64,000 nt of DNA. Source: an uncultured Acidobacteriota bacterium. Lineage in GTDB: Bacteria; Acidobacteriota; Vicinamibacteria; Vicinamibacterales; UBA2999. The notes beneath the pieces were generated by a model. That model saw only the letters and a program-made list of their open reading frames with translations. It was not told where the DNA came from and searched no databases. The translations under genes were made by a program, and so were the position numbers. Shown piece by piece: positions 5,046 to 48,002 of the stretch. The first letter of the stretch is position 1; each line of letters begins with the position of its first letter. The stretch is from NCBI GenBank assembly GCA_963802675.1, contig CAWDJL010000003.1, positions 265,158 to 329,157 on the forward strand, read 5' to 3'.

Positions 5046-6296
5046 ATGGGCGAGACGCTAACCCTCTCTGAGATCATCCACCGACGGGTCACCATCGAGT
5101 GGACCGAGGGTATTGCCGTCGTCCGCGGCGTGATCGAGCAATTGCTGGCCTCGCCGCGACAGGCCTCGAAGATACCGGAGCTTCACCAGGTACGCCTGAC
5201 CCGGTATGGAAGTGTCGAGATCGACGGCGGTTATTCGAGCGACGAACCCGTTCGACGCCTCGGGCAATTTCTGCAGGCGACGCTCGGCAATTCGGCGCCA
5301 CCGGTGCAGTTGCGGCTGGTCATTTCGCGCGCTACCGCACCCACGCCGGATTTCCGGACAATCCTCGAGTTCGACACGGCCTTGGAGTACTACGAGCGCC
5401 CCGATCGAGCCGGGTTGATCAAGACGCTGTTCGAACGCACCCAGGCGGCCCCGGCGGCGGCCACGCCTGGCGTGAACGCGACGCTGGACGCGCTGGCGCC
5501 GCTCCCATCGGTGGCGGAGAAGAAGGTCACGGCGGCCGTCCGCCGCAAGATCAATCCGCGAATCTTTCGCGTTGCGGCCGCCGCCTTGATTCTCGGCGTC
5601 GCGGCGGCCGTGGGATTGAGATATGCCCTGGCTGCTGGCGCCGTCGAAGTGGACTCGGGAGTGCCGCAGGCGGCTGCCGAAGTGGCGGTCAAGGCTTCCG
5701 AAACGGTGGGAGATGCGGTCGTGAAAGGAATCTCGGCGGTCACTGAACGGGTGGGGCTGGGCCGACTGGTGTCCCCGGATGCCGCGCCGTCACCGCCGCC
5801 CGGGTCGGTTCCGCCGCCACCCGACCCCACCAAGGCCGCACCTGCAGTCAGACGACCTGTCGCGCCGTTGAAGACGGCTGCGACGGTCGCTCAAGTTTTC
5901 GACCTCGAGCCACTGCCCATCGTCGAGAGCGCGGGTCCTAGTGCGACGGCATCATCATCCGCCGGTCAGCGAGGCAGCAGTTCGAACGGCTCGCTGGCTG
6001 GCGTCGATCCGCTCGCCGTGTATACCTCCGCGTCGGCTGATGTGATGCCGCCGGTGAGCCTGAACCTGCCGTTGACGCGGGAATTGCCGCCCCATCTTCG
6101 ACGGGAGGATCTCACGCGGATCGAGTTGCTGATTGCCATGGACGGCACCGTGGAGTGGGTGAGGTTGGTCGGACAGCCGCAGACCGTGCACGACACGATG
6201 TGGCTGAGCGCGGTCAAGGCGTGGCAGTTCCAGCCGGCGTTGAGAAACGGCATCCCTGTCCGGTATCGAAAGACGATCTGGATTGCGCCACGATAG
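5046..6296 (+). CDS. TonB C-terminal domain protein with cytoplasmic N-domain, single TM and Pro-rich spacer
   Basis: TM helix IFRVAAAALILGVAAAVGL. Pro-rich spacer SPPPGSVPPPPDPTKAAP. The C-terminus IELLIAMDGTVEWVRLVGQPQ...AVKAWQFQPALRNGIPVRYRKTIWI is typical of TonB_C. Confidence 0.7.
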   Translation: MGETLTLSEIIHRRVTIEWTEGIAVVRGVIEQLLASPRQASKIPELHQVRLTRYGSVEIDGGYSSDEPVRRLGQFLQATLGNSAPPVQLRLVISRATAPTPDFRTILEFDTALEYYERPDRAGLIKTLFERTQAAPAAATPGVNATLDALAPLPSVAEKKVTAAVRRKINPRIFRVAAAALILGVAAAVGLRYALAAGAVEVDSGVPQAAAEVAVKASETVGDAVVKGISAVTERVGLGRLVSPDAAPSPPPGSVPPPPDPTKAAPAVRRPVAPLKTAATVAQVFDLEPLPIVESAGPSATASSSAGQRGSSSNGSLAGVDPLAVYTSASADVMPPVSLNLPLTRELPPHLRREDLTRIELLIAMDGTVEWVRLVGQPQTVHDTMWLSAVKAWQFQPALRNGIPVRYRKTIWIAPR

Positions 6297-8593
6297 CAGC
6301 AGTTCCGAACAGACAGTCGATCTCAAGCCCGGCGGTACAATCGAGTCCAATCTCACTTTTGACTCGACCGAGCGTGTTGCTCGAGTCTCGCTGCTCGCCT
6401 CGACCGCACCTGCCTTATTTACCGCGACCATTTTCGTCAGTGCCTCGCTGCTGTTCCTGGTGCAGCCCATGTTCGCCAAGCTCACGCTGCCGCGGCTGGG
6501 CGGCAGCCCCGCGGTCTGGAACACATGCGTCCTGTTTTTCAAGCGACGCTTCTGCTGGGTTACCTCTATGCGCATTTGTCCACTCGCTGGCTCGGTATCA
6601 GACGACAGTCGGCCGTCCATGGAGCGTTGCTGCTGTTGCCTCTTCTCAGTCTGCCCATGAGTGCTGGGGAGGGACAGCCCTCGGCCTCGGAGAGTCCAGT
6701 GTGGTGGGTTCTGCGGACCATGACACTGCACGTTGGTCTGCCATTTTTCGTGGTCTCCACCACGGCGCCGTTGCTGCAGCGGTGGTTTGCGTCGCTGCCG
6801 ATTGCCTCCGCCCGCGATCCGTATTTCTTGTACGCGGCGAGCAATCTGGGCAGCATGCTCGCGCTGCTCGGTTATCCGTTCGTTCTCGAGCCGGCGATTG
6901 GGACGCGATCACAGACTGTCTGGTGGTCGGTGGGTTACGCGTTGCTGGCCGTGCTGATTGCGTGCTGTGCGTTCCTGACCCGCTCGTCGGCGAGCGATGC
7001 CCTCGCCGAGTCAGGGCAGACTGACGAGTCACGTCGAAGCGCCGACGATGTGGATGCGGCTCTCATGGCTGGTGCTGTCTTTCGTGCCATCGAGCCTGAT
7101 GCTTGGCGTCACGACGCACGTCTCCACCGACGTCGCACCCGTGCCGCTGCTGTGGGTGTTGCCACTGGCGATGTATCTCGGGACGTTCGTTTTGGCGTTC
7201 TCATCAAGGGAGTGGATCGCGCAACGGTGGCTCACCAGAGTGCTTCCCCTGCTCGTTTACTGGATGCATCCTCACGATCCTGATGAACGCGCGCTGCGTG
7301 GTGGCTGATCCCGCTCCACCTAGCACGTTCTTCGTGGCAACGTTGATGTGTCACGGTGAGTTTGGCGCGTCGACGCCCGCATCCACGCTACCTCACCGAC
7401 TTCTACATCTGGATGTCGCTGGGTGGCGTGCTGGGTGGCGTCTTCAACAGTCTGGTGGCGCCGCAGCTGTTCAACAGTGTCCTCGAGTATCCGCTGGTAC
7501 TCGCGGTCGCCGCATTGATTCGTCCGTCGCCGCAGTACCGCGGAGATGCTCGCGAATCGATCAGGCTTCCTCCTCGGCTTTCCCGGATTCGTCATCGCGT
7601 TGGTGCTTGCATTCTGGGCTTCGGGAGGGGCACCGAGCATCGGGATCGAGCCGTTGTTGTTTGCCTGTGCCAGTCTGCTGGCGATCGCCTTCATGTTCGC
7701 CAATCGCACGGCGCCGTTCGCGGTCATGGCGCTTCGGGTTCGTCGCCATGATCGTGTTGAGCGGGCCTGCTGGATCGGGTCGCGTGTTGTTCGCTGATCG
7801 CAGCTTCTTCGGCGTGCATCGCGTCCTCGAGTCAGCGGACGGGAGTTATCACCTTCTGCAGCACGGCAGCACGACGCACGGGCGTCAGGAAATGTCGGCG
7901 GTCGATGGCTGTGCGCCGACTGGCTATTACCATCCTGAGAACCCAATCGGCCAACTGTTTGCCAGGGTCAACAGGCCGTTCCAGCGGGTGGCGCTGATCG
8001 GTCTCGGTAGTGGGGGGCTGGCCTGTTACGCGACACCAGGTGCCCACTGGACCTTTTATGAAATCGATCCGCTCGTGGAGCACATTGCCCGCGATCCTCG
8101 CTATTTCACCTTCCTTCGCAACAGTCCGGGTGAGGTTGACGTGGTCCTCGGTGACGGACGCCTGATGCTTCAGCAGGCGCCGTCGGGGGTGCACGATCTG
8201 ATCATCCTGGACGCCTTCAGCTCCGATGGAATCCCGGCGCATCTCCTGACGCGGGAAGCCATGCAGCTCTATTTGTCCGCGCTGGTTCCGGATGGCGTTA
8301 TCGCCGTGCACATCTCGAATCGCTATCTTCATCTCGAGCCGCTCGTGGCCGCTTTGACAAGCGAGTTGGGTTTGTTTGCGATCGCGAACCGCGACGTGCA
8401 GATCGGCGAGGTTGCGCGTCAGAGAGGACGCCTGCCATCGCACTGGGTCCTCGCATCGAGAAATCGCCAGGCTCTCGACGAGTCTCGTGGGCTTGCCGGG
8501 TTGGCGAACGCTCGAGAGCAGCGCGAATGTTCGGCCATGGACCGACGATTACTCGAATATCCTCCAAGTTCTGACTCCGCGCTGAGGCGTTGA
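6283..8593 (+). pseudogene. fused polytopic membrane / spermidine-synthase-like (class I MTase fold) protein; about 6 frame junctions
   Basis: Pieces in all three frames join as QPMFAKLTLPRLGGSPAVWNTCVLFF|QATLLLGYLYAHL ... MCHGE|LARRRPHPRYLTDFYIWMSLGGVLGG ... RVALIGLGSGGLACY ... LIILDAFSSDGIPAHL. Junctions lie near 6541, 7030, 7255, 7362, 7555 and 7735. Confidence 0.7.
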
Positions 8594-28814: not shown

Positions 28815-28836
28815 AGAGGGCCGCCTTGATCCTTAT

Positions 28837-29046
28837 GGCAGTTGCGTTGCCGCTGCCGCGAATCCGGGTTCCGGTGCCCGGTCCGCGCTGCGATGGCCGC
28901 TGCGGGCCGCGTGACGCGAGCCCCACCGCGCGACCAGAGGTGCGGTCGGGGACCCCTGCTCGCGGAATTCCCACCGCCTTCTCGCGCGGTCGGATCCGCG
29001 CGCGGGCACCTCCACACGGCTTCGCCACAGCGGCAACGCAACTGCC
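28837..29046. repeat. 210-bp element closed by a perfect 19-bp inverted repeat
   Basis: GGCAGTTGCGTTGCCGCTG at 28837-28855 and its exact reverse complement CAGCGGCAACGCAACTGCC at 29028-29046. The interior is itself partly palindromic. It lies 22 nt after the stop of the PQQ-like gene. Confidence 0.7.
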
Positions 29047-29154
29047 TTCCGGACTGGGCGTGTTTACAGTTGTCCGACAGGAAGACACGGAAGCCGGTTT
29101 GTTTGGTGTGCCGCGAAGAACACGTGCGGGTTGCGATACTTCAACGTGTGACCT

Positions 29155-29318
29155 GTTTGCGGAGCGAACCGTGTGGAGCCCGCCGTCACGATCACGAAAA
29201 ACGTCGCGCAGGCGAGTGACAGCGCGTGGGGATGGGGGCCCCCACGCGGCGTTCCACGCGACGATACGCCGGAGCGACGTTTTTCCGGCGTGCGGAACCC
29301 GGTTCGTGGAGCAAATGG
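29155..29318 (+). repeat. 164-bp repeat, copy 1 (inverted partner at 32881-33044)
   Basis: About 88 percent identical by hand alignment to the reverse complement of 32881-33044. Contains hairpins CGCGTGGGG..CCCCACGCG and CGCCGGA..TCCGGCG. Confidence 0.8.
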
Positions 29319-29328
29319 GTCACATCGA

Positions 29329-29631
29329 ATGTCAGAGCAATCCGCAGAAGCACTGCTGCTCACGATTCGCGTGATTCCTCGCGCGAAACGATCGGGCATC
29401 GATGGCATGCGCGGCGATGCCATCCTCGTCCGTCTGCAGGCACCACCAGCCGACGGCGCGGCCAATGAGGAGCTCATTGACGTTCTCGCCGCCGCCCTGG
29501 CCGTACCCAGGCGCGCTGTGACGATCGTCTCAGGCGAACGATCACGTCAGAAACGTGTGAGAGTGACCGGAGTCGATGCCGTGACTGCGCAAGCGCGCTT
29601 GGCGAAAGCGCAGCCTAAGATGAATCCGTGA
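29329..29631 (+). CDS. DUF167 (YggU-like) protein
   Basis: ATG 29329. LLLTIRVIPRAKRSGIDGMRGDAILVRLQAPPADGAANEELIDVLAAALAVPRRAVTIVSGERSRQKRVRV is the typical YggU pattern. The upstream part of the tracked ORF is a translated repeat. Confidence 0.7.
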   Translation: MSEQSAEALLLTIRVIPRAKRSGIDGMRGDAILVRLQAPPADGAANEELIDVLAAALAVPRRAVTIVSGERSRQKRVRVTGVDAVTAQARLAKAQPKMNP

Positions 29632-30029
29632 GCCTTCGCTGGCCCGTACGTCTTCTACTCATCGGCGGTTTACTCATCACCGCCTGCGACTCGTCTGTAG
29701 CCCCACCGCCCCAGACGGTTGCGGCGGCGAGGCCGCTCGGCACCTGGGAGGGCAGTGGCAATCGCACCATTGGCATCAACAGCGATTCGGGCCGATTCCG
29801 CGTGAAGTGGGAGACGCGAGAAGGCGCCTCGCCGGGCGGGAGCTTTCGGCTGACGGTCCACAGCGCCGTCAGTGGCCGCCCGATTCAGGTCATTGCCGAC
29901 CACCAGGGCGCGGGTGGCGCGACCGTCGACTTTGCCGACGACCCCCGCCCCTACAACCTGATGATCGACTCAGCCGGCGTGCAGTGGTCGTTTTCCGTGG
30001 AAGAAATTGTCGCTGGGCGGCTTCGCTGA
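29628..30029 (+). CDS. lipoprotein, hypothetical
   Basis: GTGA overlap with the upstream gene. Lipobox LLITAC. 133 aa with no recognised domain. Confidence 0.55.
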   Translation: MSLRWPVRLLLIGGLLITACDSSVAPPPQTVAAARPLGTWEGSGNRTIGINSDSGRFRVKWETREGASPGGSFRLTVHSAVSGRPIQVIADHQGAGGATVDFADDPRPYNLMIDSAGVQWSFSVEEIVAGRLR

Positions 30030-30030
30030 C

Positions 30031-30187
30031 GGTCCACGGTCCACGGTCTACGGTCCACGGCACGTAGGCTGCCTCAGTCCCTTCGGACAAGCTAGTCAGC
30101 AACTGCCAATGGCAACTGAGCGAGAACCTCCGTGCCGGAGACCGTAGCGAGCCGGCGACCGGCAGACCGTGGACTGTCGAGACCGGG
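30031..30187. repeat. heptamer-word palindrome (TCCACGG/TCTACGG units)
   Basis: GGTCCACGGTCCACGGTCTACGGTCCACGG at 30031-30060. Inverted units (CCGTAG.., CCGTGGAC) at 30130-30187. Starts 2 nt after the lipoprotein stop. Confidence 0.7.
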
Positions 30188-30208
30188 ACGGAGTATTCTT
30201 TACAGATA

Positions 30209-30865
30209 TTGAACGCCGTGAATTATCGACTGAACGTGCTTGTCCTCATCCTCCTGTCCGCGGCATGCCGGAGCGCGCAGGGCGGCTCTGGACCGCAGAT
30301 CATTCAGCCCGGCGCGCCCGGGCAGGAGAGCCGCGAGGTCTCGGCCGCCAAGACCGCGACCGAGTCCCAGCTTTCCCACACCGACGCGGACGTCAAGTTC
30401 ATGCAGGGCATGATTGGCCACCACGCGCAGGCGATTGAGATGTCGGCCCTCGTTCCGACGCGGACCGCGCGGGACGAAATGCGGCTCCTCGCCAAGCGCA
30501 TCGACGTTTCGCAGGCGGATGAGATCAAGATGATGCAGGAGTGGCTGCAGCGGCGCGCTCAGAGGCTGCCCGACCCGCACGCGCACCACCAGCCAGGCGC
30601 GACGCTGATGCCCGGCATGCTGTCGCAGGAAGAGATGAGCCGTCTCGGCGCGGCCAAGGGTGACGAATTCGATCGCCTGTTCTTGCAGGGCATGATCAAG
30701 CACCACGCGGGCGCACTGACGATGGTGCACGAGTTGTTTGCGAGTCCGGGAGCGGGGCAGGAATCGGAGATTTTTGCGTTCGCATCCGACGTCGACGCCG
30801 ACCAGCGGATGGAAATCGATCGGATGGGCGCCATGCTCGCGACCATCAAGGAGCTTCAGCAATGA
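30209..30865 (+). CDS. DUF305 family lipoprotein (four-helix, His/Met-rich)
   Basis: Signal/lipobox LVLILLSAAC. Duplicated DUF305 motifs DVKFMQGMIGHHAQAIEMS and DRLFLQGMIKHHAGALTMV. Confidence 0.75.
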   Translation: MNAVNYRLNVLVLILLSAACRSAQGGSGPQIIQPGAPGQESREVSAAKTATESQLSHTDADVKFMQGMIGHHAQAIEMSALVPTRTARDEMRLLAKRIDVSQADEIKMMQEWLQRRAQRLPDPHAHHQPGATLMPGMLSQEEMSRLGAAKGDEFDRLFLQGMIKHHAGALTMVHELFASPGAGQESEIFAFASDVDADQRMEIDRMGAMLATIKELQQ

Positions 30866-30874
30866 GATCGGTGA

Positions 30875-32818
30875 GTGATCAGATTCCTCGCGCTGGCCGC
30901 CGTGGCTGGCGTGCTGGCCGTGGAAGGTGCCGCGCAGGGTCCGTCGGCTTCGACGACGGATCCGCGGGTGGGACTCAAGCCCGGCTTCCGTGATGCGGGC
31001 GTGGCGGCGCGCAACATGGAGCTGGTGGCGAGCATGCCCAAGCCCGACGGATTCTTCGATCCGAAATCCCCCGAAGGCATCGGAAGCGCGCCGGAGCCTC
31101 CGCCGGCAGCGGCGGGCACTCCGGCGCCGGAAACGCCGAGCACGCCCCCCCAAACGACACAGTCACCTGCGCCTACGACCACGCCGGCCGCAAATGCAAC
31201 ACCAGGCGGTCCCGGAGGCCCCCCAGGAGGAGGCGGTGGCGGTGGTGGTGGCAGCGGACTGAACTTTGCCAACTCCGACCTCGCGTTCTCGGGCAATCAC
31301 CTCTTCATGGGCAACTTCAACGGGTTCAATGCCTATGACGTCGAGAACACGCGACGACCGCGACTGCTGGCGTCGATCGTCTGCCCGGGCGGTCAGGGCG
31401 ATGTGTCAGTGCACGGCAACCTCTTGTTCATGTCGGTCGAGCAGACTCGTGGTCGCGTGGACTGCGGCGTCGAGGGTGTTTCGTTGGCGGTGAGTGCGGA
31501 GCGCTTCCGCGGGGTTCGTATCTTCGACATCACCGACATCCGCAAGCCAAAGCAGGTGGCAGCGGTGCAGACCTGCCGTGGGTCGCACACGCACACGCTG
31601 GTGACATCCCCCAACGACAAAGAGAACATCTACGTGTACGGCTCGGGCACCGGCATGGTTCGATCGGGCGAAGAGCTCGAGGGATGCTCGGGCGGCAAAC
31701 CCGAAGAGGACAAGAACACCGCGCTCTTCAGCATCGACGTGATCAAGGTTCCCCTCGCCGCACCTGAAAAGGCCGCCATCGTCGCGCGCCCGCGTATCTT
31801 CGCCGATGAGAAGACCGGCGCCCTCGCGGGTTTGTGGGCCGGTGGCGATCACGGGCCAGGCACGCAGCGCACATCGATGACGAACCAGTGTCATGACATC
31901 ACGGTGATGCCCGAGGCGGGCCTGGCGGCAGGCGCGTGCTCGGGCAACGGCATCCTGCTGGACATTTCCGATCCGGTGAAGCCGGTGCGGCTCGATGCGG
32001 CCAGCGACAAGAACTTCGCCTACTGGCACTCGGCCACGTTCAACAACGACGGCACCAAGATCGTCTTCACCGACGAATGGGGAGGCGGGACGCGTCCGCG
32101 CTGCCGCGCCAGCGATCTGCAGACCTGGGGCGCCGACGCCATCTTCGACATCGTCGACAAGAAGCTGCGGTTCGGCAGCTACTTCAAGATGCCCGCGGCG
32201 CAGACCGACACCGAGAATTGCGTCGCCCACAATGGCTCGATCATCCCGGTGCCGGGGCGCGACATCATGGTTCAGGGCTGGTATCAGGGTGGACTGTCGG
32301 TGTTCGACTTCACCGATTCGGCCAACCCCGTGGAAATCGCGTTCTTCGATCGCGGTCCGATCAGCGCTACGCGGCTCATCACGGGCGGGTTCTGGTCGAC
32401 CTATTGGTACAACGGTCACATTTACGGCGCCGAGATCGCACGCGGTGTGGACATCTTCCGCCTGACGCCAAGCGAATACCTGTCGCAGAACGAGATTGAC
32501 GCGGCGACGCAGGTGCGCATGACCGTGTTCAACGCGCAGCAGCAGCCCCGGGTGACTCACCCGGCAACGTTTGTCGTCGCGCGCGCATATCTTGATCAGT
32601 TGTCGCGCAGCAAGGCGCTGCAGCCCGAGCGCGTGGCGGCGATCAAGAGCGCCATCGATCGCGGCGACCGGCGGTCGCCAGGACGCGCGGATCTCGATCA
32701 GCTCGACACGCTGGCGGGGCAGCTCGAGAAGGACGCGAGCGCGGCGACGGGCCGCGACGCGACGCGCATGGGTGCGCTGGCCTCGACGATCAAGGAGCGG
32801 GTCTCGCGGCTTCGATAG
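30875..32818 (+). CDS. LVIVD-repeat beta-propeller surface protein, paralog 1
   Basis: GTG start. Signal MIRFLALAAVAGVLAVEGAAQG. Pro/Gly low-complexity linker including GGPGGPPGGGGGGGGGSG. Propeller core GNHLFMGNFNGFNAYDV ... GNLLFMSVEQ ... CHDITV ... WSTYWYNGHIYGAEIARGVDIF. Confidence 0.75.
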   Translation: MIRFLALAAVAGVLAVEGAAQGPSASTTDPRVGLKPGFRDAGVAARNMELVASMPKPDGFFDPKSPEGIGSAPEPPPAAAGTPAPETPSTPPQTTQSPAPTTTPAANATPGGPGGPPGGGGGGGGGSGLNFANSDLAFSGNHLFMGNFNGFNAYDVENTRRPRLLASIVCPGGQGDVSVHGNLLFMSVEQTRGRVDCGVEGVSLAVSAERFRGVRIFDITDIRKPKQVAAVQTCRGSHTHTLVTSPNDKENIYVYGSGTGMVRSGEELEGCSGGKPEEDKNTALFSIDVIKVPLAAPEKAAIVARPRIFADEKTGALAGLWAGGDHGPGTQRTSMTNQCHDITVMPEAGLAAGACSGNGILLDISDPVKPVRLDAASDKNFAYWHSATFNNDGTKIVFTDEWGGGTRPRCRASDLQTWGADAIFDIVDKKLRFGSYFKMPAAQTDTENCVAHNGSIIPVPGRDIMVQGWYQGGLSVFDFTDSANPVEIAFFDRGPISATRLITGGFWSTYWYNGHIYGAEIARGVDIFRLTPSEYLSQNEIDAATQVRMTVFNAQQQPRVTHPATFVVARAYLDQLSRSKALQPERVAAIKSAIDRGDRRSPGRADLDQLDTLAGQLEKDASAATGRDATRMGALASTIKERVSRLR

Positions 32819-32880
32819 ACGTCCGAATTGGAGACTAGCGTCGATGATCGGAGCTCACGCGCCTGTCGGGGTCGAAACCG

Positions 32881-33044
32881 CCATTTGCTCCGCCAACCGG
32901 GTTCCGCACGCCGGAAAAGCGCAGCTCCGGCGTAACGTTGGGTGGAACGCGGCTTGGGGGCCCCCAACCCCAAGCCCTGTCACTCGCCTGCGCAGCGCTT
33001 TTCGTGATCGTGACGGCGTGCTCCACACGGTTGACTCCGCAAAC
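32881..33044 (-). repeat. 164-bp repeat, copy 2 (inverted partner of 29155-29318)
   Basis: Its reverse complement aligns over the full length with 29155-29318. The hairpin arms are GGCTTGGGG..CCCCAAGCC, i.e. two compensatory base-pair changes relative to copy 1. Confidence 0.8.
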
Positions 33045-33096
33045 GGCGGCTTCGACCAAGATGTGCGCGTGCGTGATCTGAGTTAGTGTCTTGTAG

Positions 33097-33267: not shown

Positions 33268-35161
33268 ATGCGAAACGCAGCAACTGGATTTCTGACTGCC
33301 GCGGTCCTGGCCTCGATGGTGATCGCCGTCGACACGCAGGAGCGTGCCGGCAATGCGGCGACGAGTGATCCGCGGGTCGGCCTCAAGGGCGGCCTTCGTG
33401 ATGCGGGCGTGGCGGCGCGCAACATGGAACTGCTGGCGAACCTGCCCAAGCCCGACGGCTTCTTCGATCCCACGGCCCCGGCTGGTGCGGTGAGCGCGCC
33501 CGAGCCGCCGCCTGCGGCCGCGGGCGCACCGTCAGGCCCCACCGCCAATCGGCCGGAGGGCGCTGCCGGTAACGCCACGCCGCCTGCACCGCCGCGAGGT
33601 GGAGGTTTCACGAACTCCGATCTCGCCTTCCGCGGAACCAATGTCGTCGTGGGGAACTATCACGGCTTCAACACCTACGACATCGAGAACGCGCGCAAGC
33701 CGCGGCTGCTCGCCTCGGTCGTCTGCCCCGGAGGTCAGGGCGACGTGTCGATCTACGGCAACCTCCTGTTCATGTCGGTCGAGCAGACGCGCGGGCGCAT
33801 CGACTGCGGCGTGCAGGGTGTGACCGCGCCGGTGAGCGCTGAACGGTTCCGAGGCATTCGCATCTTCGACATCACCGACTTGAAGAAGCCGCGACAAGTG
33901 GCGGCGGTGCAGACTTGCCGTGGGTCACACACTCACACGCTGGTTCCGGACAAGAACGACAAGGCGAATCTGTATGTCTACGGTTCGGGCACGAGCTCGG
34001 TGCGAGCGGGTGAAGAGCTCGAAGGATGCTCTGGACGTGATCCGAAAGAGGATCCCAACACCTCGCTCTTCAGCATCGACGTGATCAAAGTGCCGCTCGC
34101 CAATCCCGAGAAAGCGGCGATCGTGAATCGCCCGCGCATCTTCGCGGATCCGAAATCGGGTGCCATTTCGGGCTTGTGGCAGGGCGGCGATCACGGGCCA
34201 GGAACGCAGAGCTCGCGGATGACCAATCAGTGTCATGACATCACGGTCCTTCACCGAGATCGGGCTGGCCGCCGGTGCGTGCGCGGGCAACGGCATCCTG
34301 CTCGACATCTCCGACCCCGTGAACCCTGCTCGCCTCGACCATGTCACCGACAAGAACTTCGCGTACTGGCATTCGGCGACGTTCAACAACGATGGCACCA
34401 AGATCCTCTTCACCGACGAGTGGGGCGGCGGCGGCCGTCCCCGTTGCCGCGCCACCGACCTGCCGACCTGGGGCGCGGACGCAATCTTCGACATCGTCGA
34501 CAAGAAACTGCGCTTCGGCGGCTACTACAAGATGCCGGCCGCACAGACCGAGCAGGAAAACTGCGTCGCGCACAACGGGTCGCTGATTCCGGTGCCGGGC
34601 CGGGACATCATGGTGCAGGCGTGGTATCAGGGCGGCGTGTCGGTGTTCGACTTCACCGATTCCGCCAACGCGCACGAGATTGCGTTCTTCGACCGCGGGC
34701 CCGTCTCGGACAAGGAGCTCGTGTCCGGCGGTTACTGGTCGACCTACTGGTACAACGGGAACATCTACGGCGCCGAGATCGCGCGCGGCCTCGACGTCTT
34801 CCGATTGACGCCGAGCGAGCACCTGACGCAAAACGAGATCGACGCCGCCACGCTGGTTCGCTTCGAGGAGTTCAACTCGCAGCAGCAGCCGCGCGTCACG
34901 TGGCCGGCGACGTTTGTCGTCGCGCGCGCGTATCTCGATCAGCTGACCCGGAGCAAGGCGCTGCAGGCGGATCGAGTGACGGCGATCAAGAGTGCCATCG
35001 ACCGTGCCGACCGGCGGTCTCCCGCTCGCGGCGATCTCGACGCGCTCGATACGCTCGCGTCGCAGCTCGACAAGGAGGCTGGTGCGGCCACGGGCCGCGA
35101 CGCCATGCGCATGCGATCGCTGGCGTCGACGCTAAAGGAGCGGGTCGCTCGGCTTCGATAG
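33268..35161 (+). pseudogene. LVIVD-repeat beta-propeller surface protein, paralog 2; one +1 junction near 34252
   Basis: Collinear with 30875-32818 throughout. MTNQCHDITV|..EIGLAAGACAGNGILLDISDPVNPARL continues in the 34235 ORF frame and ends ...LKERVARLR* like paralog 1. Confidence 0.75.
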
Positions 35162-35179
35162 CGTGGGCTGACGACTACA

Positions 35180-35298
35180 GGCCTCAGAGACTCAGAAACA
35201 CAGAGAAGCTAGAACTAAACCAACACGAAGGACACGAAGCACACGAAGAACCCTAACCACTTACTCTCTTCGTGCCCTTCGTGTTCTTCGTGTTGCAT
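35180..35298 (+). repeat. composite element: GGCCTCAGAGACTCAGA word plus CACGAAG-unit hairpin (left bracket of the MBL gene); probable bidirectional terminator
   Basis: Hairpin arms at 35222-35250 (AACACGAAGGACACGAAGCACACGAAGAA) and 35267-35296 are complementary at about 26 of 29 positions. It lies between convergent genes. Confidence 0.7.
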
Positions 35299-35307
35299 TT
35301 CTTATGG

Positions 35308-36195
35308 CTACCTCGCACGCAGATAGGTTCCAGGCGCCGTTTCAGTCACCTGGCCGCGTGCGATGAGCCGTTCAAGATGGAGCTCCGCGGATCGCCTCTC
35401 CACGCCATCGACAAACAGCAACGTGACGTGCGGCCGGTAGACGAACCGGTGGGCGACGATGTCGTCGAGCGTGCGGGGCTGGTCGAGAAAATCGAGGAGC
35501 GCCTGCTCGCGGCGAGGGATGACGGCCTCGTACTCGGTCAGCAGCGCAAGGAACTCCTGACGCCCCTCTACGACTCCGCGATGGTGAAAGGTGACGAACC
35601 AGCGGGCGTCGAGGTCGCGGCACTTGCGCAGCGTCTGTTCGAAATCGTCCAGGCTCGACCACGCATCGCCGTAGTACGGGCCAAACCCGGTCAGGTCGAT
35701 GTCCGCCAAATACATCACGCCATGAGGCTCGATCAGAATCCCGGAGTGCCCGCGAGTATGTCCTGGGAGATGAACCACGTGGAGTGTCGTGCGCCCCAGA
35801 TCGAAGGTATCCCCGTCGCCATACGCCGTGGCATCGGGGCGCGGCGTGTAGTGGAAGCTCTCGAGCACCTCGTCCCTCCACTCGGCTTCAATGGAAGGCG
35901 GCAGGCCGTAAATCCGCATCAGCCCATCGATTGAGTCGAGCCCCAGCTTGTCGGCCTCGGGTACGACGATCGACGCGTCCGGATAGCGAAAAACACCTGC
36001 CAGATGATCCTCATGGCAGTGGCTGAGCAAGATCGAATCGGCTGCCGGCACCTCCATCGCGCCCGCCAGACTCAGCGACGGATCGATGATCATCGTGCTG
36101 TCGCGGCCTTGCACGATGACGGAATTGCCGTGCGGGTACCGTCCGCCGCTCGTCCCGCGCAACACGCGCACAGCGTCTAACGACAACAGGTCCAC
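35308..36195 (-). CDS. MBL-fold metallo-hydrolase
   Basis: Intact 295-aa ORF. HxHxDH motif LLSHCHEDHLAG, later LPGHTRGH. The GTG start lies inside the first heptamer repeat unit, so the start is uncertain. Confidence 0.75.
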   Translation of the reverse strand: MDLLSLDAVRVLRGTSGGRYPHGNSVIVQGRDSTMIIDPSLSLAGAMEVPAADSILLSHCHEDHLAGVFRYPDASIVVPEADKLGLDSIDGLMRIYGLPPSIEAEWRDEVLESFHYTPRPDATAYGDGDTFDLGRTTLHVVHLPGHTRGHSGILIEPHGVMYLADIDLTGFGPYYGDAWSSLDDFEQTLRKCRDLDARWFVTFHHRGVVEGRQEFLALLTEYEAVIPRREQALLDFLDQPRTLDDIVAHRFVYRPHVTLLFVDGVERRSAELHLERLIARGQVTETAPGTYLRAR

Positions 36196-36389
36196 GGTCT
36201 ACGGTCCAAGGTCTACGGTCCACAGTCTACGGTCCACGGTCTACGGTAGCCACGAAGGGCACGAAGACACGAAGAAACACGAAGCCAGTTTGGATCTGAT
36301 CCGAATAACCTTCGTGGTCCTTCGTGCCCTTCGTGGCTACGAACCGTTGTTGCGTGAGTCTCTGTCAAGAACTCTGAGTCTCTGAGGCC
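36189..36389. repeat. heptamer array (TCYACGG x8) plus CACGAAG-unit hairpin plus CTGAGTCTCTGAGGCC word (right bracket of the MBL gene)
   Basis: 36189-36248 is the tandem 7-mer array. Hairpin arms are 36249-36284 and 36310-36337. 36350-36389 ends with the reverse complement of the 35180 word. Confidence 0.75.
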
Positions 36390-39380: not shown

Positions 39381-39445
39381 GGCCACGGTCCACGGCCCAC
39401 GGTCACGGCCCACGGAGCACTGACCACTGACCACTGATCACTGAC
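39381..39445. repeat. heptamer arrays CCACGGY x5 and CACTGAY x4
   Basis: GGCCACGGTCCACGGCCCACGGTCACGGCCCACGG then CACTGACCACTGACCACTGATCACTGAC. The same CACTGAT word recurs at 38437-38456 on the other side of the DUF1028 gene. Confidence 0.7.
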
Positions 39446-43256: not shown

Positions 43257-43619
43257 GGCCGCTTCGCGGAAGGCCGGCCTTCGGCCGGAGGGCCGCTCAC
43301 TGCGTTCGCGGAGGGCCGCTTTGCGGAAGGCCACTGAGTGGAAGGGCCGCTTCGCGGAGAGGGGAGCCAGAGATTAATCCGGGCCGCAGGCCCGGCCATC
43401 TTGCGAGCAACGCGAGCAGCCATCCGCCCGAAGGGCGGCCCTCCGGCCGCAGGCCGGCCGTCCGTGAACGAAGTGAGCGGCCCTTCCGCGAAGCGGCCCT
43501 CTCCGGCCGGAGGCGGCCCTATGCGAGCGCAGCGAGCAGCCGTCCGCGAAGCGGCCTTCCGGCCGAAGGCCGGCCTTTCCGCGAACGAAGTGAGCGGCCG
43601 TCCGCGCGGAGCGCGGCCG
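43257..43619. repeat. about 360-bp cluster of GC-rich mini-hairpins arranged as a large palindrome
   Basis: Words GGGCCGCTTCGCGGAAGG and CCTTCCGCGAAGCGGCCC in both orientations. Mini-hairpins CCGGCCTTCGGCCGG, CCGGGCCGCAGGCCCGG, CCGCCCGAAGGGCGG, CCGGCCGAAGGCCGG, CCGCGCGGAGCGCGG. It fills the whole spacer between convergent genes. Confidence 0.7.
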
Positions 43620-46290: not shown

Positions 46291-46416
46291 AGTTACAAGT
46301 TACAAGTTACAAGTTCAAAGTTTCAGGGTTCCAAGGGTTCCAAAAACCTTGGAACCCTGGAACCTTGGAACCCCGGAACTTTGGAACCTTGGAACCCTGG
46401 AACTCTGGAACCCTGG
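46291..46416. repeat. AGTTACA heptamer array, hairpin, and GGAACCYT octamer array (left bracket of the padR operon)
   Basis: AGTTACA x3 plus variants at 46291-46325. GGTTCCAAGGGTTCC / GGAACCCTGGAACC pairing around AAAAA. GGAACCYT x8 at 46351-46416. Sits between convergent genes and abuts the stop at 46418. Confidence 0.75.
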
Positions 46417-46417
46417 A

Positions 46418-47935: not shown

Positions 47936-47957
47936 GACGTTTTTCCAGAGTCGCCTT

Positions 47958-48002
47958 GGAACCCTGGAACCCTGGAACCTTGGAACCCTGGAACCTTGGA
48001 CC
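47958..48002. repeat. GGAACCYT octamer array (right bracket of the padR operon)
   Basis: GGAACCCTGGAACCCTGGAACCTTGGAACCCTGGAACCTTGGACC, same word and same orientation as 46351-46416. Confidence 0.75.

Follow-up and report, generated by a model that had tools for sequence, protein, structure and literature searches.

The window analysed here, the whole 64,000-nt stretch at positions 265,158-329,157 of contig CAWDJL010000003.1 from an uncultured Acidobacteriota bacterium (GCA_963802675.1), carries two inverted copies of a hairpin-forming repeat, termed copy A and copy B, that are the subject of this report. In an inverted-repeat search of the window they emerged as arms of 164 nt (29155-29318 and 32881-33044) that are 88% complementary and lie 3562 nt apart, with four forward-strand genes (29329-32818) between them: a DUF167/YggU gene (29329-29631), a gene for a 133-aa protein without family (29628-30029), a DUF305/CopM-like gene (30209-30865), and a gene for a 647-aa LVIVD-like or choice-of-anchor-B-like protein (30875-32818). 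An earlier note on this DNA had named these genes yggU, lipoprotein, DUF305, and LVIVD1; the second of them encodes the 133-aa protein without family, and the 647-aa product is not called LVIVD by Pfam. The four genes are context only and form no part of the element. Aligned by blastn, the arms are 88.4% identical over 164 nt with 19 mismatches (E = 7e-57), a similarity far beyond chance and in keeping with the full-length alignment of about 20 mismatches that the note had counted by hand. The longest identical runs between the arms are 24 bp and 20 bp, and each arm is itself an imperfect palindrome, as seen in its blastn self-matches.

The borders of this similarity are not the borders of the element, because the outer stem continues beyond them in sequences that differ between the two copies and pair in both. 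With borders drawn from the alignment of copies and from outer-stem pairing, copy A spans 29141-29328 (+, 188 nt) and copy B spans 32872-33055 (-, 184 nt); the outermost 10-14 nt vary among copies yet always pair, as in TGTGACC/GGTCACA of copy A, TCGAAGCCGCC/GGCGGTTTCGA of copy B, and TCGATGTAGCCC/GGGCTGCATCGA of a copy in another genome (L006, introduced below). Copy A ends one base before the ATG of yggU (29329), with the arm 29155-29318 as its well-conserved interior, and copy B occupies the spacer between two LVIVD-like paralogues, antisense to both. The two copies represent two subtypes, alpha (copy A) and beta (copy B), that are about 84% identical, and a covariance model of their subfamily (fam1, model R1) scores copy A at 214 bits on the plus strand against 45.5 on the minus strand and copy B at 218.5 bits on the minus strand against 56 on the plus strand. 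A third, divergent relative (fam2) lies at 28827-29057 (-), immediately upstream of copy A, and contains a further inverted-repeat pair, I2, as its arms. The core motif pair of the family occurs only three times in the window, always between 28.8 and 33.1 kb, and no further member of the subfamily of copies A and B was found in the 64 kb by blastn, nhmmer, or the covariance model.

In all, 16 full copies of 184-263 nt, drawn from about 12 genomic contexts in an Acidobacteriota metagenome-assembled genome (MAG), related assemblies, and soil metagenomes, form the basis of the structural analysis. An exact scan of the 20-mer CGCCGTCACGATCACGAAAA, common to four of the seven first-aligned copies, against 185,579 species genomes gave ten genome matches, comprising nine chance matches of 20-37 nt and one true copy, the full-length element in the Acidobacteriota MAG L006, which has no synteny with the window. 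The 22-mer TTCCGGCGTGCGGAACCCGGTT, identical in all seven copies of the first alignment (A1), was present in nine metagenome contigs representing seven distinct loci with full (L011, L013, L015, L016/L019) or truncated (L012/L014, L017, L018) copies. Relatives of the window were reached by exact-sequence look-up, as three window proteins fall into 90%-identity clusters with members on other assemblies; the contigs fetched comprise six with the gene cluster (L020-L024, L027), one with its upstream part only (L026), and one from an unrelated locus (L025), and together L020-L027 hold many more copies. As a separate observation, six of the nine repeat-bearing metagenome contigs (L011, L014, L015, L017, L018, L019) end within about 200 nt of the repeat, a pattern suggesting that short-read assembly tends to fail at the repeat or its hairpin.

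The family is previously uncatalogued and absent from Rfam. Across the whole window, Rfam 15, whose families include 6S, Y RNA, and Acido-1, gave no match at the gathering threshold, and at E values up to 10 only chance-level matches appeared, the best on the element being Atu_C8 at 21 bits against a gathering score of 50. No match to the element was found among viral contigs, plasmids, or phages, and the literature searched for the core motifs and for repeats of Acidobacteria held nothing on this hairpin repeat family. A comparison of its joined six-frame translations with a 5.8-billion-protein set, meant to detect spurious ORF calls over other copies, likewise gave no match. A small conserved open reading frame (ORF) was considered and rejected: none of the several open frames is conserved across the single-base indels that separate copies, and substitutions track base pairs.

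RNAalifold returned the same single, end-to-end long hairpin from seven copies and again from 16. From the outside inward, it consists of a freely covarying outer stem of about 18 bp (P1), an internal loop (GGAG/GGAG), helix P2 (CAAACCG/CGGUUUG), a second internal loop (UGUGGA/GGAAC), helix P3 (GCACGCCG/CGGCGUGC), an 11-nt bulge in the 5' strand (UCACGAUCACG) in which an entire additional hairpin can be accommodated, helix P4 (GAAAAACGNNGC/GCNNCGUUUUUC), a small loop (GCA/GGA) followed by the short helix P5, and a variable apical hairpin with about 18 unpaired nucleotides after it on the 3' side. The three purine-rich internal loops and the bulge are largely invariant across copies, GTAG replacing GGAG only in L016 and in one arm of copy L020_A. 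In copy A, the 5' core motif CCGTGTGGAG (29169-29178, +), which covers the end of P2 and the loop strand UGUGGA, is invariant in 16 of 16 copies, and the 3' core motif CGGAACCCGG (29293-29302, +), part of the 22-mer mentioned above, forms the opposite side of the UGUGGA/GGAAC loop. The apical hairpins are CGCGTGGGG-ATGGGGGC-CCCCACGCG in copy A (29223-29248, +) and GGCTTGGGG-TTGGGGGC-CCCCAAGCC in copy B (32951-32976, -), and the former covaries with copy B and other copies (helix 6). These are the central hairpins of the earlier note, CGCGTGGGG...CCCCACGCG and GGCTTGGGG...CCCCAAGCC (the latter read from 32976 to 32951), and both of the compensatory pairs that it pointed out are real (columns 103/162 of alignment A5, CG to GC; columns 107/159, GC to UA). 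Its second stem, CGCCGGA...TCCGGCG, is possible as a local alternative but is not a supported structure and is better explained by long-range helices: the supposed variable loop supplies the 3' strand of P4, whose covariation with the 5' arm is seen in almost all copies, and a C-G to G-C change present in P3 of four copies is compensated within P3 but disrupts the pair that closes the local stem.

The 16-copy alignment, from which the hairpins inserted in the bulge of five copies were cut out so that the core aligns, contains 59 pairs with 95.8% of cells paired. Double (compensatory) changes occur in 24 of the 59 pairs (76 cells); counted per column, there are 53 further distinct pair types, a more robust figure than the cell counts. 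None of 500 shuffles reached any of five covariation measures, and controls in which partners were slid by 1-3 columns gave only 36-43% paired cells and 2-10 double-change pairs. Folded singly, copies A and B reproduce the alignment-based structure, with the long hairpin as the minimum free energy fold (-100.5 kcal/mol, z = -4.9 for copy A; -114.7 kcal/mol, z = -6.5 for copy B). Selection on a folded structure, as the earlier note had proposed, is shown by the comparison of copies, and the strand bias of wobble pairs described next points the same way.

On the element strand (plus for copy A, minus for copy B), G·U cells number 44 and are spread over 16 columns, whereas A·C cells number 9 and fall in 6, and one G·U position is kept in 15 of the 16 copies. 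The bias is retained on their own strand by copies that lie antisense to host genes (12 G·U versus 2 A·C). The complement strands of copies A and B fold at -88.3 and -100.5 kcal/mol, respectively, leaving the element strand 12-14 kcal/mol more stable, and covariance-model scores across copies run from 100 to 235 bits forward against 25 to 76 reverse. Since the wobble bias holds whatever the direction of the host gene, the selected form is a single strand, namely the element's own; RNA and DNA both fit the data.

The core extends to fam2, which keeps the core loop (CCGUGUGGAG ... CGGAACCCGG) and differs in its outer and apical modules. In the window copy, the exact core motifs CCGTGTGGAG ... 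CGGAACCCGG lie at 29010 and 28864 (-), and the alignment and fold of five fam2 copies show the same architecture of outer stem, core loop, P3, 5' bulge, and P4. Model R1 detects the window fam2 at 35.3 bits (E = 1e-5), and fam2 orthologues and paralogues are present in L020, L021, L023, L024, and L027. Modularity is also evident within copies, as an extra hairpin of about 43 nt occupies the bulge of L020_A, L022_C, L023_A, and L023_C, L021_B has only a 13-nt insert there, and the apical hairpin is longer in L020_A and L021_A. The extra module (CCCCAACGCGC...GCGCGTTGGGG) lies approximately at L020 9456-9498, L023 8285-8327, L023 14408-14450, and L022 15624-15666, and is bounded by repeated (C)CGCCG in L020_A and L023_A; the module is perhaps a small palindrome able to insert into a larger one.

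All copies are intergenic, mostly at the 3' ends of genes or between co-directional genes, and their neighbours are unrelated (MFS transporters, a sigma-54 regulator, a MacB-type permease, an AMP-binding enzyme, and an enoyl-CoA hydratase). Among the relatives, three sites show how the copies are arranged. Site A, between the BamB-like gene and yggU, holds fam2(-) plus fam1(+) in the window, L023, and L027, fam1(-) plus fam2(+) in L021, fam1(-) followed by an insertion of the IS110 family of insertion sequences (IS) in L026, partial fam1(+) plus fam2(+) in L024, and a heptad array plus fam1(+) in L020 and L022. Site B, between the LVIVD-like paralogues, holds fam1(-) in the window and L023, fam1(+) plus a 3' half copy in L021 and L022, and fam2(+) plus a half copy in L020, and site C, after the second paralogue, holds a composite block with fam1(+) in L022 and L023 that is absent from the window and L020. 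Copy A is 90-91% identical to the site-B and site-C copies of other assemblies and to the copy in L015, whereas at its own site A the identity to the copies of L020, L021, and L022 is only 75-77%; the flanking coding DNA is 94-96% identical in the relatives. Number, orientation, and subtype of the copies vary at one and the same site, and the subtypes are shuffled among sites, which is the behaviour of a mobile or actively recombining repeat rather than of a fixed gene, and the family marks intergenic regions in these MAGs as rearrangement hot spots.

The conserved core is also the target of an IS110/IS1111-family element. In L026, where the element lies at 5152-6449, a gene with DEDD_Tnp_IS110 and Transposase_20 domains follows a repeat copy that is 98% identical to the L021 copy up to ...GCTCCACAC, where homology stops. 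A related IS, with an 87% identical transposase, spans 11-1603 of a contig from another sample (L028), in which both junctions are visible (TGCTCCACAC / IS / GGTTTTCTCCACGAACGGGCTGCATCGAC). The insertion point on the element strand, AACC^GTGTGGAG, is identical in these two different copies; the element has inserted there twice, independently. Matching stretches occur in the non-coding region at its 3' end: GGAGAAAACC, which is the right flank in reverse complement; TCCACAC and TGCTCCA, which correspond to the left flank; and ATAGAACG, the end of the IS itself. Given these matches to both target flanks and to its own end, the region is a candidate bridge/seek RNA aimed at the repeat, with CTCCACAC/GGTTTTCTCC as the target. 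Guide sequences of this kind are expected of bridge/seek RNAs (PMC11208160; PMC11187229), and REPs are known targets of IS110-family elements (PMC1525189; PMC11208160; PMC12288879). As IS110-family elements home to REPs and prefer them as targets (PMC1525189; PMC12288879), the present repeat plays the role that REPs play elsewhere, and it offers a natural example of such an element aimed at the core of a repeat. The ends of the IS are unrelated to the repeat, as a blastn search of the IS against all loci matched only itself and L026. An unrelated rve integrase is present in L024.

The explanation judged most probable, at roughly 0.6, is that these elements constitute a structured dispersed non-coding repeat family of soil Acidobacteriota, comparable in kind to REPIN, ERIC, and bcr1. 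By analogy with such repeats, a non-autonomous element might be copied, or converted between copies, through a single-stranded hairpin intermediate of DNA or RNA; recognition of the invariant purine-rich loops would fall to a factor whose gene lies elsewhere, and the hairpin would persist because only folding copies propagate. Several observations weigh against this explanation. The scan of ~36 window ORFs (of 50 predicted) yielded no RAYT/HUH protein, DDE transposase, recombinase, or reverse transcriptase, and the gene tables of L020-L027 contain no mobilising gene besides the rve integrase of L024 and the IS110-family element. The flanks of the 16 copies contain no target-site duplications or direct repeats, and no clean pair of filled and empty sites was found among the relatives, whose intergenic regions differ as whole composite blocks; transposition is for these reasons inferred rather than demonstrated. 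The apparent copy number is low, with three copies in 64 kb, all within 4.3 kb, and few exact-word matches. Many of the 16 copies are kin (six alpha copies are 91-99% identical), so that the cell counts given above overstate the number of independent events. Lastly, the combination of strongly invariant loops with modular, variable hairpins is more reminiscent of a functional RNA than of an ordinary selfish repeat.

This last point leads to the most probable of the alternatives, in which the copies would be a family of stand-alone structured small RNA (sRNA) genes, each with its own promoter and producing a hairpin RNA of ~190-260 nt whose invariant GGA-containing internal loops and bulge bind a protein (as a sponge, a scaffold, or a 6S/Y-RNA-like decoy), with paralogues spread by duplication. 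Invariant loops and bulge, freely covarying helices, and hairpins of variable length at tolerated points make up a classic functional-RNA pattern, and the near-constant G·U position, the wobble bias that follows the element strand whatever the direction of the host gene, and the low apparent copy number would all be at home in such a family. This reading is nevertheless doubtful, as Rfam provides no match even at E values up to 10, neither window copy adjoins an intrinsic terminator or a promoter (sigma-70-like consensus only being tested), the flanks of the 16 copies share no sequence just outside P1, and no conserved synteny was found among copies. Where flanks are related, they are complementary and extend the stem. 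The truncated copies and the changes of orientation and subtype at the same site in close relatives are likewise unusual for an sRNA gene and usual for a repeat.

Less probable again, and unlikely on the whole, is a hairpin that acts in cis within host transcripts, in 3' untranslated or intercistronic regions, where it would stabilise, terminate, or direct the processing of the mRNA, its fold being selected in place. Such a role would suit the intergenic placement described above and the fact that either strand still folds into a long hairpin, and effects of this sort are known for ERIC and REP (PMC3184786). It sits poorly with the mixed orientation of the copies relative to flanking genes (~11 sense and 8 antisense) and with the lack of a U-tract after the hairpins of the window copies. 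Moreover, the antisense copies keep the wobble bias of their own strand, so the better-folding strand would often be absent from the host mRNA.

The earlier note had also raised the possibility that the pair could invert the 3.5-kb block between its arms, and the corresponding explanation, a recombination substrate that flips the yggU-LVIVD block as a switch or composite cassette, is very unlikely. It draws on the inverted disposition of the copies with their identical runs of 20 and 24 bases, and on a site-A block of about 500 bp (fam2 plus fam1) that has the opposite order and orientation in L021 and L026 relative to the window. Yet the cassette is never inverted in the six related assemblies (L020-L024, L027): L020-L022 and L027 have the BamB-like gene, yggU, the 133-aa gene, the DUF305 gene, and LVIVD-like genes 1 and 2 in this order on a single strand, and in L023 and L024, where yggU and the 133-aa gene are not called, the remainder keeps its order and strand. 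The inverted configuration itself is not conserved, with site-A/site-B orientations of +/- in the window and L023, +/+ (direct copies) in L022, and -/+ (the opposite inverted state) in L021. The difference at site A is not a recent simple flip either, since the elements there are 70-75% identical and the spacer between them gave no alignment, and the scan of ~36 window ORFs yielded no invertase or recombinase in the vicinity. Minimal processing segment lengths limit homologous recombination, and arms of 88% identity with identical runs of at most 24 bp are a poor substrate for it. The pair is consequently not a dedicated inversion device, although rare RecA-mediated inversion may still take place, and the inverted arrangement around the four genes is incidental, one configuration among several that the dispersed copies adopt interchangeably. 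A neutrally decaying local duplication without structural selection, which could point to the copying of sites B and C in relatives together with an LVIVD-like gene as one segment, deserves next to no credence, being already refuted by covariation above every control and by the outer stems of copies A and B, which differ in sequence and pair fully, and facing copies in about 12 unrelated contexts.

The dispersed-repeat explanation accounts for a striking inverted repeat without invoking a gene switch, and the family offers an unusually clean covariation signal for a repeat, with invariant loops that point to a specific recognition partner. Its unusual features (length, loops, modular insertions, and few apparent copies) would allow for a genuine function as RNA or in protein binding, though at low probability. 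A bolder proposal, put forward tentatively and with considerable doubt, is that the family represents a new class of structured single-stranded replicator or domesticated RNA, in which the loops (GGAG/GGAG, UGUGGA/GGAAC, and GCA/GGA, of tandem-GA type) and the bulge would form a putative protein-binding platform, hairpin modules would plug into tolerated sites as they do in functional RNAs, two sub-families would share one core, and that core would be stable enough for an RNA-guided IS110-family element to tune its guides to it. A dedicated protein partner of the loops, or a function as RNA, would make the family a new class of non-coding element.

Apart from the repeat family, the surrounding DNA presents several features of its own. 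The two LVIVD-like genes (30875-32818 and 33268-35256) are tandem paralogues with 76-83% nucleotide identity; neither product has a Pfam LVIVD domain, and the only NCBIfam match is a weak one to "choice-of-anchor B". The second paralogue changes frame between 33912 and 34254, its true C-terminus lying in the frame that ends near 35160, and relatives encode a 630-aa protein in its place; it is therefore either a pseudogene or the product of a long-read indel error. A stretch of 34 nt recurs at 76% identity in the 3' ends of the DUF305 gene (30821-30854) and of the first LVIVD-like gene (32765-32798), where it encodes the similar C-terminal tails ...RMGAMLATIKEL and ...RMGALASTIKER, and the tail of the second paralogue is similar. 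Tandem arrays of short period (7-9 nt) lie at many gene ends, in the window at 30029-30060, 35223-35294, 36189-36247, 39383-39445, 46291-46417, and 47954-48000; at 35223-35294, in the convergent spacer after the second paralogue, two CACGAAG-type arrays face each other as a hairpin, and in L020, L022, and L023 arrays of (GGTTGCC)n or (AGTTACC)n lie between a stop codon and repeat copies. A tandem array with a 58-nt period (43382-43606; 3.8 copies, 75% matches) is located between a glycoside-hydrolase-like ORF and a DUF4423/HTH gene, with arrays of shorter period nearby (43308-43464).

REP, REPIN, ERIC, bcr1, and Correia elements have been characterised mostly in Proteobacteria, Firmicutes, and a few other groups, and no structured dispersed repeats of soil Acidobacteriota were found described in the literature searched. 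Several candidate identities outside these groups were set aside. A template/variable repeat pair of a diversity-generating retroelement is contradicted by differences that are not adenine-specific and by the lack of a reverse transcriptase, a retron msr/msd by the lack of a reverse transcriptase beside any copy, and an integron attC site by sequence conservation across genomes without an array or integrase. A 6S RNA was rejected for want of an Rfam match and of a two-sided central bubble, and because the element occurs in several copies of variable orientation; a riboswitch or leader was rejected in the absence of a consistent downstream gene or orientation. Bridge/seek RNAs resemble the repeat in being structured, non-coding, ~150-250 nt in length, and furnished with internal loops, and an IS110-family element is physically associated with it (L026, L028); however, the IS interrupts the repeat as a target, the loops of the repeat are invariant rather than programmable, it folds as a single unbroken hairpin rather than into two loop domains, and a recombinase gene is lacking in the vicinity of most copies. 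With miniature inverted-repeat transposable elements (MITEs), the family shares a non-coding sequence, a length below ~400 bp, a long hairpin, and a distribution that varies between close strains. MITEs, though, have conserved terminal inverted repeats and target-site duplications and usually a parent IS with the same ends, whereas the termini of this repeat (NCGAYG...CRTCGN) covary, target-site duplications are lacking, and the only IS seen, of the IS110 family, has unrelated ends.

Among the closest known systems are REPINs, the REP doublets mobilised by RAYTs in Pseudomonas and Enterobacteria, in which compensatory changes preserve the hairpin (PMC3116915). Like REPINs, the present copies are imperfect palindromes without coding content that lie between genes and form a single long hairpin as single-stranded DNA or RNA; like them, they keep conserved blocks while compensatory change maintains their stems, and occur in either orientation, in clusters, and as truncated remnants. 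At 184-263 nt, however, this repeat is two to three times longer than a REPIN (~70-110 nt), its arms resolve into no two short REP units (palindromes of 20-40 nt), its conserved parts are the internal loops and bulge instead of the arm ends, and its apparent copy number is low. No conserved GTAG or CGTC tag of the type described for REPs (PMC3733652) was found when looked for by eye only, and neither the scan of ~36 window ORFs nor the gene tables of L020-L027 (~250 kb, several genomes) revealed a RAYT (Y1 HUH) gene. The bcr1 element of the Bacillus cereus group (~155 bp) is likewise dispersed and intergenic, with a distribution that is not conserved between close strains and with documented compensatory changes that preserve its hairpin (PMC3184786), but it has 5-bp direct repeats and a two-stem, cruciform-like fold in place of the single end-to-end hairpin without direct repeats seen here. 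The two share no sequence similarity. ERIC also has long forms, with insertions at fixed internal points. More generally, ERIC/IRU, Correia, and RUP elements resemble the present family as imperfect palindromes of 100-400 bp that lie in transcribed intergenic regions in either orientation and form long hairpins (PMC3184786). The family fits the broad kind of the structured dispersed intergenic repeat, yet it does so without the full set of defining features of REPIN, ERIC, or bcr1, and what sets it apart is great length, purine-rich internal loops that stay invariant, insertions of whole modules, and a copy number that appears low.

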